Assembly: GCA_965263035.1 (NCBI GenBank) | Contig: OZ253580.1 | Location: 6,080,001 to 6,144,000, forward strand | Direction of reading: 5' to 3' | Source of the DNA: Acidobacteriota bacterium | GTDB lineage: Bacteria; Acidobacteriota; UBA6911; RPQK01; JAJDTT01 | Length of the DNA: 64,000 nt | Part shown: positions 26,331 through 54,877 of the stretch, one piece after another | Numbering within the stretch: position 1 is the first letter of the stretch | How the letters are laid out: every line of letters begins with the position of its first letter | Translations under genes and position numbers: made by a program | Notes under the pieces: model-generated | The model's database searches: none | Told to the model about the DNA's origin: nothing | What the model saw: only the letters and a program-made list of their open reading frames with translations

Positions 26331-26404
26331 GTAGGAGGGGGGACATTCTTGTCCCCCTCTTCAAAACGCATCCGGAATCGGGAACCGAGAGGCACCGCTC
26401 CCAC
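26331..26404. repeat. REP-like doublet (degenerate)
   Basis: GTAGGAGGGGGGACATTCTTGTCCCCC ... CCGCTCCCAC. Confidence 0.55.
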
Positions 26405-28367: not shown

Positions 28368-28431
28368 CCGAGGGGACATCCATTTCCCCGTTAGCCATTG
28401 GGAACTCGGCGGTCGGAAACCGCCGCTCTTG
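28368..28431. repeat. REP-like doublet
   Basis: GAGGGGACATCCATTTCCCC ... GGCGGTCGGAAACCGCCGCTCTTG. Confidence 0.65.
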
Positions 28432-34595: not shown

Positions 34596-34622
34596 CTCAT
34601 GCCTCCTTGGAGGAGCGACGTT

Positions 34623-34789
34623 CTAGGAGCCTGCGCCGCAGAAATTAATCTACTGCGAAAGCGGTAGAATCGGTCCATATTTCCTCGATTTCTCGGCGAA
34701 TAGAACAACTATGCACCTCCAAATCGAGAAAATCTGGCCTCGATTCCCCACTTTCTCGCTACGATCATTTCTACCGCGCAGACTCCTAG
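34623..34789 (-). mobile_element. MITE family A, copy 2 (inverted)
   Basis: Reverse complement of 1627-1793, CTAG on both sides. Confidence 0.88.
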
Positions 34790-34885
34790 TCGCCCAAATC
34801 CTTCGCTTATATTCCCCCTCGCACCAGTTTCCCTCTTCATCCGTCGCCTTGTCGCTTCAAGCTCCTCCGGAGTTCGGCGACTGGA

Positions 34886-35527
34886 GTCGCGGTAGGGACG
34901 CCGGTTGCCCAGCGCCCCCCGCGCAGATCCGTGCGTGCCCGTTAAGGCACACGGCTCCTACCTCAGGTAATGACGGCAGGTCGCGACGCCCGCCGTATCC
35001 GACCCCCGCCTGTGTCACGGTAGCCCGGCTCTGAGTCCGGTCCGTACTTTGGTGAGCCGAATTCCCCTTGGTTCCACCCCTTCGCTCCACCGACTCCGCA
35101 GAGAGTTCCCCCTCCTTGTTCGCCCGCTTCATCACTACTATGGGTGAATCCGATTGCTTCCTCTCTCCCCTCATGGGTTACGGCTTTCCCCTTTCCCACA
35201 AGGCCCCGGCTCTCGCCGGGGAGAGAGTAAGCCCTCCCAGGTCCCGACACCAGATGTACGTACGTGCATGGGTTCTTTGACACCGCAGAGCCCGGCTGCC
35301 CCTCACCCTGGCGGTCCAGCCGGTGTTGCCTTCGACCGCGACTACAGCCTCGGCACTTCCGATCAGGGAGCTTTCGATGCTCAATAGCCTGCCCATACGC
35401 ACCGCTACCGACGCTTCGCCGACACCCTCACGGGTGCCCACGCACGGCTCGCGGAGAAACGTGGATGGTTAGTCCTTCGTTTCAGCGGACTTTCACCGCC
35501 TATCTTGTGCCAGTTAGCCTGGCGCAC
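34886..35527 (-). mobile_element. ORF-less group II intron (642 nt) inserted in a REP palindrome
   Basis: 5' GTGCG; domain V GAGCCGTGTGCC..GGCACGCACGGATC (34957-34926); domain VI ending CCCTACCGCGAC; EBS1/EBS2 complementary to the 5' exon; only short RT-terminus remnants in domain IV. Confidence 0.9.
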
Positions 35528-35577
35528 AGTCGCCGCTCCTGCTCGGCGGTTGGAAACCGCCGCTTGTCTGTTTAAAT

Positions 35578-35744
35578 GGGGCCGTCCGGGTCGCTCATGA
35601 GCGACCCGGACGGCGGTGGCTGGACCGTACCGCCGCGGACTGTTACGAACCGTATGGGAGTGAGGTCGGCCACCGTCTTTCCCGATGTCCTGAATGGATA
35701 CGAGGGCATCAAGGCCCGAATGACAAGCACAGGAGACAGGAAAG
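35578..35744 (+). ncRNA. IS110 bridge RNA (5' hairpin, target-binding loop, donor-binding loop)
   Basis: Perfect hairpin 35581-35614; guides ACCGCCGC (35629-36), ATGGGAG (35654-60), ATGGATAC (35694-701), GACAAG (35722-27); RNA ends approximate. Confidence 0.82.
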
Positions 35745-36692
35745 ATGAAACAGCATACCGTAGGCATCGACATCTCGAAAGCGCACCTGGACGCGCACCG
35801 GCTGGCCGACGGCCATTCCGCCCAGTTCGACAATGACCCGGCCGGCTTCCGGGCGCTGATTGATTGGATCGGAACTCCGGTCGAGTGCGTCGCGTACGAG
35901 GCCACCGGTCCCTACCACCGGGACCTCGAGGAAGCGCTGTCCAAAGCGAAGCTGCCGCTGGCGAAGGTGAACCCCTGGCAGGCGCGGCGCTTCGCCGAGG
36001 CGACCGGGAGCCGCGCCAAGACCGACGCCGTAGACGCTCGGAAACTGGCCCAGCTGGCCGCCACGCTGGAGCCGCGCCGGACCCAGGTGCCGTCCAAAAC
36101 GCAACGCCGGCTCCAGGATCTGCAGACGTCCCGGGACGCGCTGATGCGCCAGCGCACGGCCGCGCTCAACCGCCGCCGACAGCTCCGCGAACCCCTGCTC
36201 AAACAGCAGAACCAGATCCAGATCAACATGTTCGAGCGCCACCTGCGCGCCATCGACCGCAAAATGCAGCAGCTGATTGCGGCCGACGAGGCGCGGGCCC
36301 GCAAGTTGGAGATCCTCACCTCCATCCCGGGGATCGCGGCCACCACCGCCGCCGGTCTGCTGGCCGAGATGCCCGAGCTGGGCGCCCTCAGCGGCAAGGC
36401 CGCCGCCAGTCTGGCCGGGTTGGCCGCCGTTCCGCGCGAGTCGGGGGCTTGGCAGGGCCGGGCCTTCATCCGGGGCGGACGGGCGCGGGCGCGACGGCTC
36501 CTGTACATGCCGGCGGTGGCCGCCCTGCGTTGGAACCCCGACTTGGCCGAGGTGTACCGGAGGCTGAGCGAGCGCGGCAAGCCCGGCAAGGTGGCCCTCG
36601 TCGCCGTCATGCGCAAGCTTATCGTCCTGGCCAACACCCTCGTCCGGCAGGACCGCACCTGGTTGCCCGTAGCGCCCCGAGCGACCTTCTGA
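35745..36692 (+). CDS. IS110-family DEDD recombinase/transposase
   Basis: GIDISK, EATGPY, AKTDAVDA, SIPGI, GLA..PRESG, AVMRKL. Confidence 0.95.
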   Translation: MKQHTVGIDISKAHLDAHRLADGHSAQFDNDPAGFRALIDWIGTPVECVAYEATGPYHRDLEEALSKAKLPLAKVNPWQARRFAEATGSRAKTDAVDARKLAQLAATLEPRRTQVPSKTQRRLQDLQTSRDALMRQRTAALNRRRQLREPLLKQQNQIQINMFERHLRAIDRKMQQLIAADEARARKLEILTSIPGIAATTAAGLLAEMPELGALSGKAAASLAGLAAVPRESGAWQGRAFIRGGRARARRLLYMPAVAALRWNPDLAEVYRRLSERGKPGKVALVAVMRKLIVLANTLVRQDRTWLPVAPRATF

Positions 36693-37086
36693 GGCCACGG
36701 AGAAACCCCGTGAGGAAAGGGAGCGTGTGGACCCCCTGATGGCCGTCTGTCGAACTTCCGGTCAAGTCTGGCCGGAAGCTTGCTTACGGCCATGAAAGCT
36801 CTTCACGCCCTGGGGAGCGCCGGGTCACCCGAAGGGTCGCAGCGAAGCGGAGGAGCCGGAGGCTTGACCCGACGCTCCCCAGGGCGTATCCGGACCTCCC
36901 GGAGGACTGACGTCGACGATCTCAGGTCCCTCGATCCAGTTATCGGTCCACTCATCGCCCCCTGCACGGCGCCCGGCGGATCCAGCTCGATCTCCGCCTC
37001 ACCTCCGGCGGAAGAACGCTCCTCCTAACCCTGTGCCCTTTGGACCGGACAGATCACGTACTAACGACACGGGATGGAAACACCGA

Positions 37087-39330
37087 TTAGCACCCACCAC
37101 TTGCAACATGGATACTCCTCTCCAGAAACCGGTCGGTGCTGTCGGGATCGATCCGGCGGCAACTCCGGCGCAGGGCGAGAGCCACCACTTCCAGGTCCCG
37201 GCTGCAGGCGGTGTCCCACTTGGAGAGCGCGGCGAACTCGCCGCACAGCAGGGCCAACCGGAGCATATGGCGAAACAGAATCCCCTCCTGCTTGACCAGA
37301 CCGCGGCTGTGGACGAACCGGTTGAAGTTCCCGCCGAGATCCAGGAGGTGCCCGGCGGCCCAGACCGGCCGAACCCTCAACTGGGAGACCTGGGGCAATC
37401 GCCCATTGAAGACGAGCCGCAGCTTGGCGGCCAGAGTCGGACCCGGACCCGCCTGCATGAGTTCCTCCCGCAACCTCGTCTCCGTCCCCCCGGCCGGTCC
37501 CAGCCGCGCCAACTCGGGATTGAGACAGTTCGTCTCCAGCGGTCCGGGGTCCAACCTTCGAGCGTCCGGTACCGGAACGGATCGGGCGACGGCTCCCGAG
37601 AGCTCCAGCACGCTCTCCAGGGCCTGAATTCGCTCGCTCCGGCTGGCCCGGGGGAGCAGATCCCTCAGGAAGTCGCCGTAGAGGGGATTGATGCCGCGAA
37701 AGGCCAGCAGCCGATCCAGCCGCGGCGTGGCCTGGGCCAACACCGGCCGGTAGTCTCCGCGGTCCTCCGGATCCGGAGGCGGCTCCGGGTCCAACGTCAC
37801 ATAACCTCCCAGCCGGAGGGTGAGCAGCATGTCATTCAGGGCTCTCTGGGCCGACTGCACCGCTCGGGCGCTGAGCAACCGCTTCCCGACCATGGCTCGG
37901 ACCTCGCCGACCCGGGGGGAACGTTTCAACAGGTAAGCCAGATACCTCCAAGGCAGGGGGCCCCGGCTGGCCAGGGCCGCCGGCCGCGCGGCGACCAGAC
38001 GGCGAAACTGGGCCTGGTCCCAAGCGGGCCGGTTCTGCCTCCCGGACCTCATCTTCCGGGCCAGGGACTTGCGAGCCTGGCGAAACGCGGACTTGCGGGT
38101 GCGGGCGGGGATCGACTCCAACCGCCGCTTGCGGCGCAGGAGTTTCACCTGTTCCTCCGGCGCCAGGGCCAGGACAAAGCCCCGCCGGTCCCATTGGGGC
38201 CGTCCGGCCCGGCCGAAGATCTGGTGGGCGGTGGTGGCGTCCAGCGCCCGTTTCTGCCGGGGCGGGCCCTTGACCAGGCTCTTCAGCACCACGGACCTGG
38301 CCGGCAGATTGATCCCGGCCGACAGGGTCTCGGTGCAGATGACCACGGGGAGAAGCCGGCGCTGGAACAACTCCTCCACCACGCGCCGGTACTTGGGGAG
38401 GATCCCGGCATGATGAACCCCCACGCCGCGCAGCAGGAGTTGCCGCAGGACGGGTCCGGCTCCGTCGGACAGGTCCAGGTCCCGTACCCGGGCGGCCAGC
38501 GTCCGCTTCCGGCTCCCGTCCACCAGGGGCCGGCCCTTGAGCCGTACCGCCATCGACCAACACTCCCGGCGGTTGAAACAGAACACCAGACAGGGGCTCC
38601 TTCGCCCCTTCTTCCCTCCCCGGACCAGTTCCACCAGCAGCTCTTCCAGCAGCAGGTCGCCGACCCACTGGTACGTCAACGGCACCCGCCGTTCCCTTCC
38701 CTGGAGCAGCTGCATTTGCCGGCCGTGGCTGTTCCGAAGCCAGCGCGTGAAGGACTCGGGACGGCCCACCGTGGCCGAGAGCAGCAGCAGCCTCACGTGC
38801 TTGGGAAGCAGCGAAAGGGACAACTCCCAGACGATGCCGCGTTCCGGGTCCCGGAACGTGTGGAATTCGTCCTTGACCACCACGGCGACGCGATCGAAAT
38901 CGAAGTTGTCGGGTCGCAGCAGGCGATTGAGGAGGATCTCGGCCACCACCACCCGTACCGGCGCGTCAGGGTTGACCTGCCGGTTCCCGGTCACCAGCCC
39001 CACGGTGTCGCCGGGGAATCCCCAGCGTACGGCGGCGGCCTGCATCTCCCGGAATTTCTGCTCGGTCAGCGCGATGAGCGGAGTGGTGTAGTAGGCCGTT
39101 CGGCCGCTGTGGAGAGCCTCGAAGAGGGCCCCTTCGGCGATCAAGGTCTTGCCGGTGCCGGTGGGCGCGGTCACCAGCAGGTCCTCTTCCGAGGCGTACC
39201 AAGCCTCCAGAGCGTCCCTCTGAAAAGGATAGGGTTTGAAAGGAAGAGACTGCAGGTAACGATCCAGCAGCTCTCGCCGCCGGGTCGAGGCTGTTTCGAT
39301 CACTCGCTGGGAGTCAGCCGTGGACCTCAC
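37087..39330 (-). CDS. Ski2-like DEAD/DEAH-box helicase; present C-terminus supplied by the IS110 right end
   Basis: APTGTGKT, DEFH, LSAT, HHAG, TETLSAGINLPAR, QIFGRAGR. Confidence 0.9.
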   Translation of the reverse strand: MRSTADSQRVIETASTRRRELLDRYLQSLPFKPYPFQRDALEAWYASEEDLLVTAPTGTGKTLIAEGALFEALHSGRTAYYTTPLIALTEQKFREMQAAAVRWGFPGDTVGLVTGNRQVNPDAPVRVVVAEILLNRLLRPDNFDFDRVAVVVKDEFHTFRDPERGIVWELSLSLLPKHVRLLLLSATVGRPESFTRWLRNSHGRQMQLLQGRERRVPLTYQWVGDLLLEELLVELVRGGKKGRRSPCLVFCFNRRECWSMAVRLKGRPLVDGSRKRTLAARVRDLDLSDGAGPVLRQLLLRGVGVHHAGILPKYRRVVEELFQRRLLPVVICTETLSAGINLPARSVVLKSLVKGPPRQKRALDATTAHQIFGRAGRPQWDRRGFVLALAPEEQVKLLRRKRRLESIPARTRKSAFRQARKSLARKMRSGRQNRPAWDQAQFRRLVAARPAALASRGPLPWRYLAYLLKRSPRVGEVRAMVGKRLLSARAVQSAQRALNDMLLTLRLGGYVTLDPEPPPDPEDRGDYRPVLAQATPRLDRLLAFRGINPLYGDFLRDLLPRASRSERIQALESVLELSGAVARSVPVPDARRLDPGPLETNCLNPELARLGPAGGTETRLREELMQAGPGPTLAAKLRLVFNGRLPQVSQLRVRPVWAAGHLLDLGGNFNRFVHSRGLVKQEGILFRHMLRLALLCGEFAALSKWDTACSRDLEVVALALRRSCRRIDPDSTDRFLERSIHVASGGC

Positions 39331-54039: not shown

Positions 54040-54714
54040 ATGAAGGCGTTGCACTCCTGGGACCTCACTCCGAAGCAGGCGGTCCAACTCCAGAAGCGGC
54101 TTCGCTCTCGCATCCACACCGATCTGCCCTTGTCTGACCCGGGAAGAATCGCCGGCGTGGACGTGGGGTACAGCCGGTCCCTCGGCCTTTCCGTCGCGAC
54201 CGCGACGGTCCTTTCGTTCCCCTCCCTGGAACTTGTGGAATCGGCGGTGGCCACTACTCCCACGCCATTTCCGTACGTCCCGGGATTGCTGAGCTTTCGG
54301 GAGCTGCCCCCCATTCTGGAGGCCCTCGACCAGCTCTCGGCGCCGCCGGAGATGATCCTGGTGGACGGCCATGGACGGGCCCATCCCAGGCGATTCGGCA
54401 TCGCCTGCCACCTGGGCCTGTGGCTCCGGATTCCCACCATCGGCGTGGGCAAAACCCGCCTCTGCGGAGAGTACGAGGAGCCGGGTCTGACCAAGGGATC
54501 GGCCAGTCCCCTGCGAGACGGATCCGAAACTCTGGGTGTGGTCCTGCGCACCCGCACCCGGGTCCGGCCCGTCTTCGTTTCGGTGGGATACGGGCTGCCC
54601 CTGGAAGCCTGCGTGAATTGGACCCTGGCCGTCACTCCCCGTTACCGAATTCCCGAACCGGTCCGCCAAGCCCACAACTTGGCGGCCCGGCAGACCGGGA
54701 ACCGGCCGTGTTAG
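54040..54714 (+). CDS. nfi: Endonuclease V (deoxyinosine 3' endonuclease)
   Basis: AGVDV, FPYVPGLLSFRE, VDGHGRAHPRRFGIACHLG, IGVGK, YRIPEPVRQAH. Confidence 0.95.
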   Translation: MKALHSWDLTPKQAVQLQKRLRSRIHTDLPLSDPGRIAGVDVGYSRSLGLSVATATVLSFPSLELVESAVATTPTPFPYVPGLLSFRELPPILEALDQLSAPPEMILVDGHGRAHPRRFGIACHLGLWLRIPTIGVGKTRLCGEYEEPGLTKGSASPLRDGSETLGVVLRTRTRVRPVFVSVGYGLPLEACVNWTLAVTPRYRIPEPVRQAHNLAARQTGNRPC

Positions 54715-54877
54715 GAGTCTGCGCGGTAGAAATGATCGTAGCGAGAAAGTGGGGAATCGAGGCCGGATTTTCTCGTTTTGGAGGTGCATAGTTGTTCTAT
54801 TCGCCGAGAAATCGGGGAAATATGGACCGATCCTACCGCTTTCGCAGTAGATCAATTTCTGCGGCGCAGGCTCCTAG
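54711..54877 (+). mobile_element. MITE family A, copy 3
   Basis: Homologous to 1627-1793; inserted at the nfi stop codon (TTAG/CTAG flanks). Confidence 0.88.

Follow-up and report, generated by a model that had tools for sequence, protein, structure and literature searches.

An IS110-group insertion sequence and its recombinase

The DNA analysed here, referred to as the window, is a stretch of 64,000 nucleotides from an Acidobacteriota bacterium (GenBank assembly GCA_965263035.1, contig OZ253580.1, positions 6,080,001 to 6,144,000), whose genome is one contig of 6.2 Mb. The window carries an insertion sequence (IS) of the IS110 group, bounded by copies of the dinucleotide CT and laid out as a 180-nt left end, an intact gene for a 315-aa DEDD plus serine recombinase, and a right end of 424 nt. 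The left end is predicted to fold as a bridge RNA, with two guides for the target and two for the donor. In our view the element is very probably active, or was so until very recently, and functions as IS621 does. As a new and clean example it illustrates the mechanism described in 2024; it is not a new kind of system. Every defining mark of the IS110 group that sequence alone can show is present.

The recombinase is recognised by Pfam models PF01548 (DEDD_Tnp_IS110, E = 7e-23) and PF02371 (Transposase_20, E = 9.5e-19), and scores 208 bits against NCBIfam model NF033542, 'IS110 family RNA-guided transposase', for which the cutoff is 140. A phmmer comparison with proteins of solved structure, over residues 3-299, finds ISCro4 (9t56) with E = 1.7e-35 and IS621 (8wt6) with E = 3e-32. 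Counted along the alignment, residues D9, E52, D94, D97 and S233-G234 stand opposite D11, E60, D102, D105 and S241-G242 of IS621, of which D11, E60, D102, D105 and S241 are named as the composite active site in PMC11208158. Both the N-terminal DEDD domain and the C-terminal Tnp domain with its conserved serine, two of the marks of family membership, are found. A preliminary description of this DNA had proposed a distinct and probably intact ortholog of the IS621-type recombinase; the protein keeps all five catalytic residues, and "distinct" is a fair word for a protein at such an E-value from IS621. The closest protein relatives come from Acidobacteriota metagenome-assembled genome (MAG) records, with 85-94% amino acid identity, followed by those from Candidatus Foliamicus, with 65-69%.

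A bridge RNA with four legible guides

The 169 nt upstream of the start codon fold with a minimum free energy of -85.8 kcal/mol (z -5.6), a value matched by 0 of 200 shuffles. The predicted structure is a 5' stem-loop and, after it, a pair of stems with internal loops (Table 1), the shape given in PMC11208160 for 103 IS621 orthologues. An alignment was built from ten versions of the RNA, namely the three sub-families of this genome and seven relatives spanning 94% to 44% protein identity. RNAalifold keeps all three stems in it, and 14 of the 36 consensus pairs show two-sided compensatory changes. A putative ribosome-binding site, AGGAG (35731-35), would lie inside the 3' side of the donor-loop stem.

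The four guide strings and the CT core given in the preliminary description were recovered at the same coordinates and in the expected order. The first loop contains the left and right target guides (LTG and RTG), the second the left and right donor guides (LDG and RDG). We estimated the frequency of such matches by chance from 200,000 shuffles of 35578-35744. Of these shuffles, 1302 contain the 8-mer of the left flank, 254 that of the right end and 10862 the 6-mer RDG; the two 8-mers coincide in 3, and none has all three strings. The 4-mer GGAG, present in 165174 shuffles, is uninformative.

Immediately 3' of the RTG and of the RDG stand TG and CA, at the positions where PMC11208158 puts the handshake guides. 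Their first bases fit, U with A at donor position 7 and C with G at target position 7. In an Alphaproteobacteria relative, target position 7 is T and the first handshake base of the donor loop is A, where the present element has C with G.

Table 1. Coordinates of the insertion sequence, its parts and its insertion site within the window.
Feature	Position	Strand	Remarks
IS110-group insertion sequence	35565..37116	+	1552 bp counting one CT; ends common to 12 full copies
Left CT core copy	35563..35564	+	CT is the sole sequence common to both junctions; the empty-site joint has 2 ambiguous letters
Left donor ATGGATA and right CT core copy	37108..37116	+	
Recombinase gene	35745..36692	+	315 aa; only long frame in the element
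Bridge-RNA 5' stem-loop	35581..35614	+	15 bp; relatives show two-sided changes in the pairs at alignment columns 11/39, 12/38 and 15/35
Target-binding loop stem	35615..35674	+	around a large loop; LTG 35629-37 (ACCGCCGCG), RTG 35654-60, handshake bases 35661-62 (TG)
Donor-binding loop stem	35677..35744	+	two loops around a small hairpin; LDG 35694-702 (ATGGATACG), RDG 35722-27, handshake bases 35728-29 (CA)
Left target guide (LTG)	35629-36		ACCGCCGC; matches left flank 35556-63 (ACCGCCG 35556-62 plus C of the core)
Right target guide (RTG)	35654-60		ATGGGAG; reverse complement of CTCCCAT
Left donor guide (LDG)	35694-701		ATGGATAC; equals right end 37108-15
Right donor guide (RDG)	35722-27		GACAAG; reverse complement of CTTGTC, 35563-68
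REP hairpin CGGCGG-TTGGAAA-CCGCCG	35544..35562	+	loop base plus 3' arm form the left target ACCGCCG (35556-62)
Right target of this copy, CCTCT	37117..37121	+	follows CT 37115-16; 3/5 against the RTG prediction CCCAT
TTGCAA, proposed -35 half	37101..37106	+	
TG-n-TTAAAT, proposed extended -10 half	35569..35577	+	TG 35569-70, TTAAAT 35572-77
Right non-coding end	36693..37116	+	424 nt
Palindrome inside the right end	36805..36887		23-nt arms

Copies, termini and mobility

The genome holds 12 full copies of the element, one truncated copy (c13), and a lone right-end piece of 255 bp; the copy in the window is c1. Termini that differ between copies, which the preliminary description had set down as evidence against its reading, were not found: all 12 full copies begin CT-TGTCTGTTTAAAT and finish TTGCAACATGGATA-CT. 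The core CT is present at both junctions in all 12, and insertion adds no duplication beyond the shared CT. The left donor agrees with the LDG at 7/7 positions in every full copy, and the RDG pairs with CT-TGTC, that is, with the first four right-donor bases, in every one as well; the donor predicted earlier, ATGGATA-CT-TGTC, is correct.

The sequencing runs were available as contigs, which cannot reveal rare forms. One contig in each of runs X15 and X16, from the same study, joins 35562 to 37115 and represents an empty site; exactly 1552 bp are skipped, and 2 letters are shared at the joint. Only 35 letters of these contigs fit on the left side, up to the start of a neighbouring intron-like repeat described below; the X15/X16 population therefore lacks both insertions. 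In run X1 the depth is 370-447 for the IS contigs and 35.6 for the flank, as about 12 copies would give.

One could instead view the element as a legible fossil, which has kept its bridge-RNA anatomy after mobility was lost in the lineage and whose copies were spread by duplication or homologous recombination. Consistent with this are the frameshifts at 30 aa in c7 and in truncated c13, the frame of c9 that ends at 274 aa, the identical right flank shared by c10 and c12, the recombinant look of the flanks of c12, and the failure to see any circle in the assembly or the contigs. However, c1, c2 and c3 are 100% identical over 1562-1563 nt and yet occupy different contexts of repetitive extragenic palindromic (REP) sequence, and the flanks beyond REP are unrelated between copies. 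The frame is full length in 10 of the 12 full copies (315 aa in nine, 314 aa in c12), and the window site has an empty allele in other runs. Loss of mobility is, on this evidence, improbable.

REP hairpins as the usual target

The REP hairpin at the left junction folds as DNA at -10.4 kcal/mol (z -4.4), a value reached by 0 of 200 shuffles. Nine of the 12 copies stand at the foot of such a hairpin, CGGCGG-loop-CCGCCG, followed by CT-CC. A pattern search of the genome finds 219 REP hairpins followed by CT, and the last seven bases of the hairpin are ACCGCCG in 78, GCCGCCG in 61 and GTCGCCG in 60. The string ACCGCCGCTCC is observed 91 times in the genome against 12 expected, and the full 14-mer ACCGCCGCTCCCAT, unoccupied, twice genome-wide against 0.13 expected.

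The left target agrees with the LTG of the same copy at 7/7 positions in 11 of the 12 copies and at 6/7 in c3. Judged by the flank, the RTG pairs with CT-CC in 11 of 12, and the full right half, CCCAT, is present at c3 and c4. The effective target is ACCGCCG-CT-CC; only that part is consistently required. The longer target predicted earlier, ACCGCCG-CT-CCCAT, holds up as the best-matching site, with its full right half at c3 and c4 and the two unoccupied 14-mers. Beyond the four bases of CT-CC the fit of the RTG to the right flank is loose, with 3/5 here and 0-5/5 across copies.

Three other places in the window had been singled out in the preliminary description. The supposed left-half match at 28419-28427, ACCGCCGCT, is indeed part of a genuine REP hairpin, but the next bases are CTTGC, and because the 9-mer is near chance genome-wide (207 seen, 124 expected) we rejected it as a meaningful half site. 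The REP at about 1880 does end in CCGCCG-CC-CCCAT, but its core is CC, not CT. At 26395 the string CACCGCTCCCAC is present, but there is no REP hairpin by the pattern used.

Insertion has put the T-rich start of the element behind the REP hairpin, and the resulting stretch (35544-35573) scores as similar to an intrinsic terminator, which could shield the element from read-through.

Covariation of guides and insertion sites

Covariation between guides and insertion sites is the main evidence, as far as sequence comparison reaches, that insertion would be guided, and it is from natural covariation that the term programmable would draw its support. Sub-family B (c9, c10 and c12) has the LTG ACCGACGC instead of ACCGCCGC and the RTG TTGGGAG instead of ATGGGAG, so that its target guides differ from those of sub-family A by one LTG base (C to A) and one RTG base. 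The B copies occupy the site ACCGACG-CT-CCCTA in a DDE-type IS, some 38 bp in from its left end. This host is IS1182/IS5-like and encodes a 501-aa transposase with Pfam domains DUF772, DDE_Tnp_1_6 and DDE_Tnp_1 (L092, G000:C1:1999700-2002700; L093); the B target is an unstructured 5' untranslated stretch upstream of the transposase start. Among five empty copies of the host IS, four read ACCGAAG-CT-CCTTA and one reads ACCGACG-CT-CCCAA, the last a 14/14 match to the B guides. Since the empty copies already carry the A, that base is native to the host, and the guide follows. The host of c9 and the host of c10 and c12 have 81% identity over the right flank, and therefore at least two host variants have been occupied.

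Related loci in other genomes extend the pattern. The LTG GTCGCCGCT occurs with the flank GTCGCCG-CT (L031, L035, L036), GCCCTCGCT with GCCCTCG-CT (L040-L044), and CACGCCGCT with the REP arm CACGCCG (L046, L090). In Alphaproteobacteria the LTG TTCGTGTCT accompanies the flank TTCGTGT-CT, with 7/7 agreement in 19 of 26 loci (29 were examined, three of them without a left end in range); these matches were read by eye, and the flanks are copies of one repeat and not independent. The RTG covaries too, TCGTGAG being found with CT-CACGG and TCTGGAG with CT-CCAGA (L038, 5/5). The RDG tracks the left end in the pairs GACAAG/TGTC, TACAAG/TGTA and GATAAG/TATC, and covaries in L039-L045. The LDG is invariant, and offers identity but no covariation.

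A tentative reading, to which we give slightly less than even weight, is that the copies in this genome form a series in which a single bridge-RNA element has been retargeted naturally, with sub-families A and C at REP hairpins and B moved to the host IS. If the B insertions were guided, one guide substitution would be enough in nature to switch the host site, and a target hairpin would be dispensable in this lineage. The flanks of c1 (CCTCT) and c6 (CCTGT) fit the C-type RTG better than their own, a pattern compatible with trans action of guide RNAs among the copies in the genome.

The target might instead be chosen mainly by a protein that recognises the REP hairpin, with guide matches secondary. 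Most copies do stand at the foot of a stable hairpin, as counted above, and a target stem-loop is reported for ISPpu10 as an extra specificity determinant (bioRxiv 10.64898/2026.03.19.712850). The B site, however, shows no folding stability beyond that of its shuffles (z +0.36 and +0.29), and yet B carries a matching LTG change; moreover, the LTG tracks the flank across the four further guide classes of the relatives. It is very unlikely that hairpin recognition by itself has the leading role. That the string matches are due to chance, or to a piece of REP captured in the left end, can practically be dismissed: GGAG alone says nothing and the genome is rich in CGCCGCT strings, but the joint shuffle result, the fixed order of the guides inside conserved stems, and the covariation of LTG, RTG and RDG already contradict it.

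A predicted junction promoter and the proposed cycle

Joining of the right end to the left end brings together TTGCAA, a spacer of 10 + 7 = 17 nt, and TTAAAT preceded by TG, directly ahead of the RNA, with sequence and spacing just as the preliminary description had proposed. In the integrated form, a consensus scan of 35300-37300 found 0 sigma-70-like promoter sites. The -10 half stands at left-end offset 8 in seven of eight elements scored, including all the Acidobacteriota and Foliamicus relatives. The junction pair is the same in the Acidobacteriota relatives; in Foliamicus it is TTGACA and, after 18 nt, TTGAAT or TGTAAT. In the RNA libraries, contig depth over 35584-35701 looks higher than over the stretch of the reading frame at 35703-36084, at 871.6 against 55.3 in run X16 and 293 against 64.9 in run X15, although contig depth cannot rank the parts of a gene.

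We propose that the element would leave as a circle, its right end joined to its left end at one CT. The circle junction would bring TTGCAA and TG-n-TTAAAT together, 17 nt apart, and the resulting promoter would drive a bridge RNA of about 160 nt starting near 35584, to be bound by the 315-aa DEDD/Ser recombinase. The first loop would engage the target through both of its guides, with base pairs between the LTG and the bottom strand of ACCGCCG-C and between the RTG and the top strand of CT-CC(CAT). The second loop would pair with the donor junction ATGGATA-CT-TGTC. Strand exchange at CT would then insert the element, usually at the 3' arm of a REP hairpin, with duplication limited to the shared CT.

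Several observations weigh against this account or fail to support it. The 13-mer of the circle junction occurs 0 times in the assembly, on both strands, and no backward (circle-type) joint was found in the contigs of four runs; rare forms go unseen in such data, and the absence does not tell against a circle. The junction promoter is weak by consensus, at 4/6 plus 4/6, and its -10 half has no A at position 2 and fails the scan rule. Contig ends at 35584-85 were considered as a transcript start and rejected, as the same ends occur in the DNA-like run X1. A search of Rfam 15 at E <= 1 over 35300-37400 found no bridge-RNA family, its only matches being an adjoining group II intron and two sub-threshold chance matches.

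Other such points concern the guides. Agreement of the five bases after CT with the RTG is 5/5 in two copies, 4/5 in six, 3/5 in three and 0/5 in one, and c7, c11 and c13 have GCAG in place of the GGAG needed to pair with CT-CC. In relatives L031, L033, L035 and L036 the RTG predicts CCACA, while the flanks read CCCA or CCCG; a reading with a bulged base that would rescue the match in L031, L033 and L035 was dropped as special pleading. Finally, the ninth base of both the LTG and the LDG is G (35637 and 35702), which cannot pair with the A opposite the core T. In relatives this base is T or A, and other runs have contigs with A at 35637; at this place the left guides seem free to vary.

Comparison with known systems

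According to PMC11208160, bridge RNAs are predicted, using the same kind of covariation, in 85.7% of catalogued IS110-group elements. With IS621 of Escherichia coli, as described there and in PMC11208158, the present element shares the two protein domains, the five catalytic residues, a left-end bridge RNA built of a 5' stem-loop and two stems with internal loops, four guides that each include the CT core, a REP target, and handshake bases 3' of the RTG and RDG. The two differ in that their sequences are distant, as the E-value given above indicates, and in the G at the ninth position of both left guides. The RTG reads as 7 nt, of which the first four are consistently matched, and in this resembles the 4-base RTG reported for IS621. 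The IS110 group is described in PMC11208160 as having long left and short right ends, whereas here the right end is longer than the left, swollen by a palindrome. These differences from IS621 are minor. ISCro4 is the best-scoring relative of solved structure in the protein comparison.

ISPpu10 of Pseudomonas putida is likewise an IS110 element, with a GC-rich stem-loop on the 5' side of its target, according to the preprint cited above, a place taken here by the REP 3' arm. It differs in that sub-family B sits at a site without a stable hairpin, so that the hairpin may not be required. IS4321/IS5075, of the IS1111 group and cited in PMC11208160, resemble sub-family B in targeting the ends of other mobile elements. 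They differ in carrying the RNA in the right end, and the B target is not the inverted repeat of the host IS but lies further inside it.

The element adds an apparently active bridge recombinase whose lineage stands well apart from the enteric and pseudomonad models. The donor, the target, the handshake bases and the predicted junction promoter can all be read, and the genome supplies natural guide variants with matching sites, which makes it a convenient candidate for ortholog screening. It suits two questions in the field, the weight of the RTG beyond the core and the need for a target hairpin, and leaves the picture of how IS110 elements work unchanged. A literature search, with ISfinder and the supplementary tables of PMC11208160 outside its scope, showed, among the papers listed, none that couples IS110 elements or bridge RNAs with Acidobacteriota or sponge symbionts.

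Right-end palindrome, divergent modules and neighbouring repeats

The inner 76 bp of the right-end palindrome are missing in c10-c12 and in the X15/X16 contigs (joint 36806 to 36883). Pieces of 36770-36899 recur elsewhere in the genome at 76-90% identity. The palindrome seems to have come into the IS as a small palindromic repeat. The lone right-end fragment, at G000:C1:4205110-4205364, is 100% identical to the element, and more partial right-end-like pieces adjoin it.

In two Acidobacteriota MAG records (L038, L046 and L090, at about 1000-1520), a second, divergent bridge-RNA-like module with the LDG ATGGAGAC precedes the intact element. It is followed by a decayed transposase N-terminus and then by the right-end-like string TTGCAAAGCTGGAGACT. 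This module is either a tandem or a nested relic.

On the minus strand at 34876-35540 lies a 665-bp repeat with seven copies in the genome, in which 35271-35493 gives a full match of 165 bits to Rfam model RF02005, group II intron D1-D4. It contains no long frame and no domain V/VI match at the gathering score, and looks like a group II intron without an open reading frame. Its 5' end, at about 35527, is some 17 bp from the REP hairpin used by the IS. A further repeat, at 34620-34792 and again at about 1627-1751 and 54712-54835, is about 170 bp long and resembles a miniature inverted-repeat transposable element; it has about 173 copies in the genome, at 93-98% identity.

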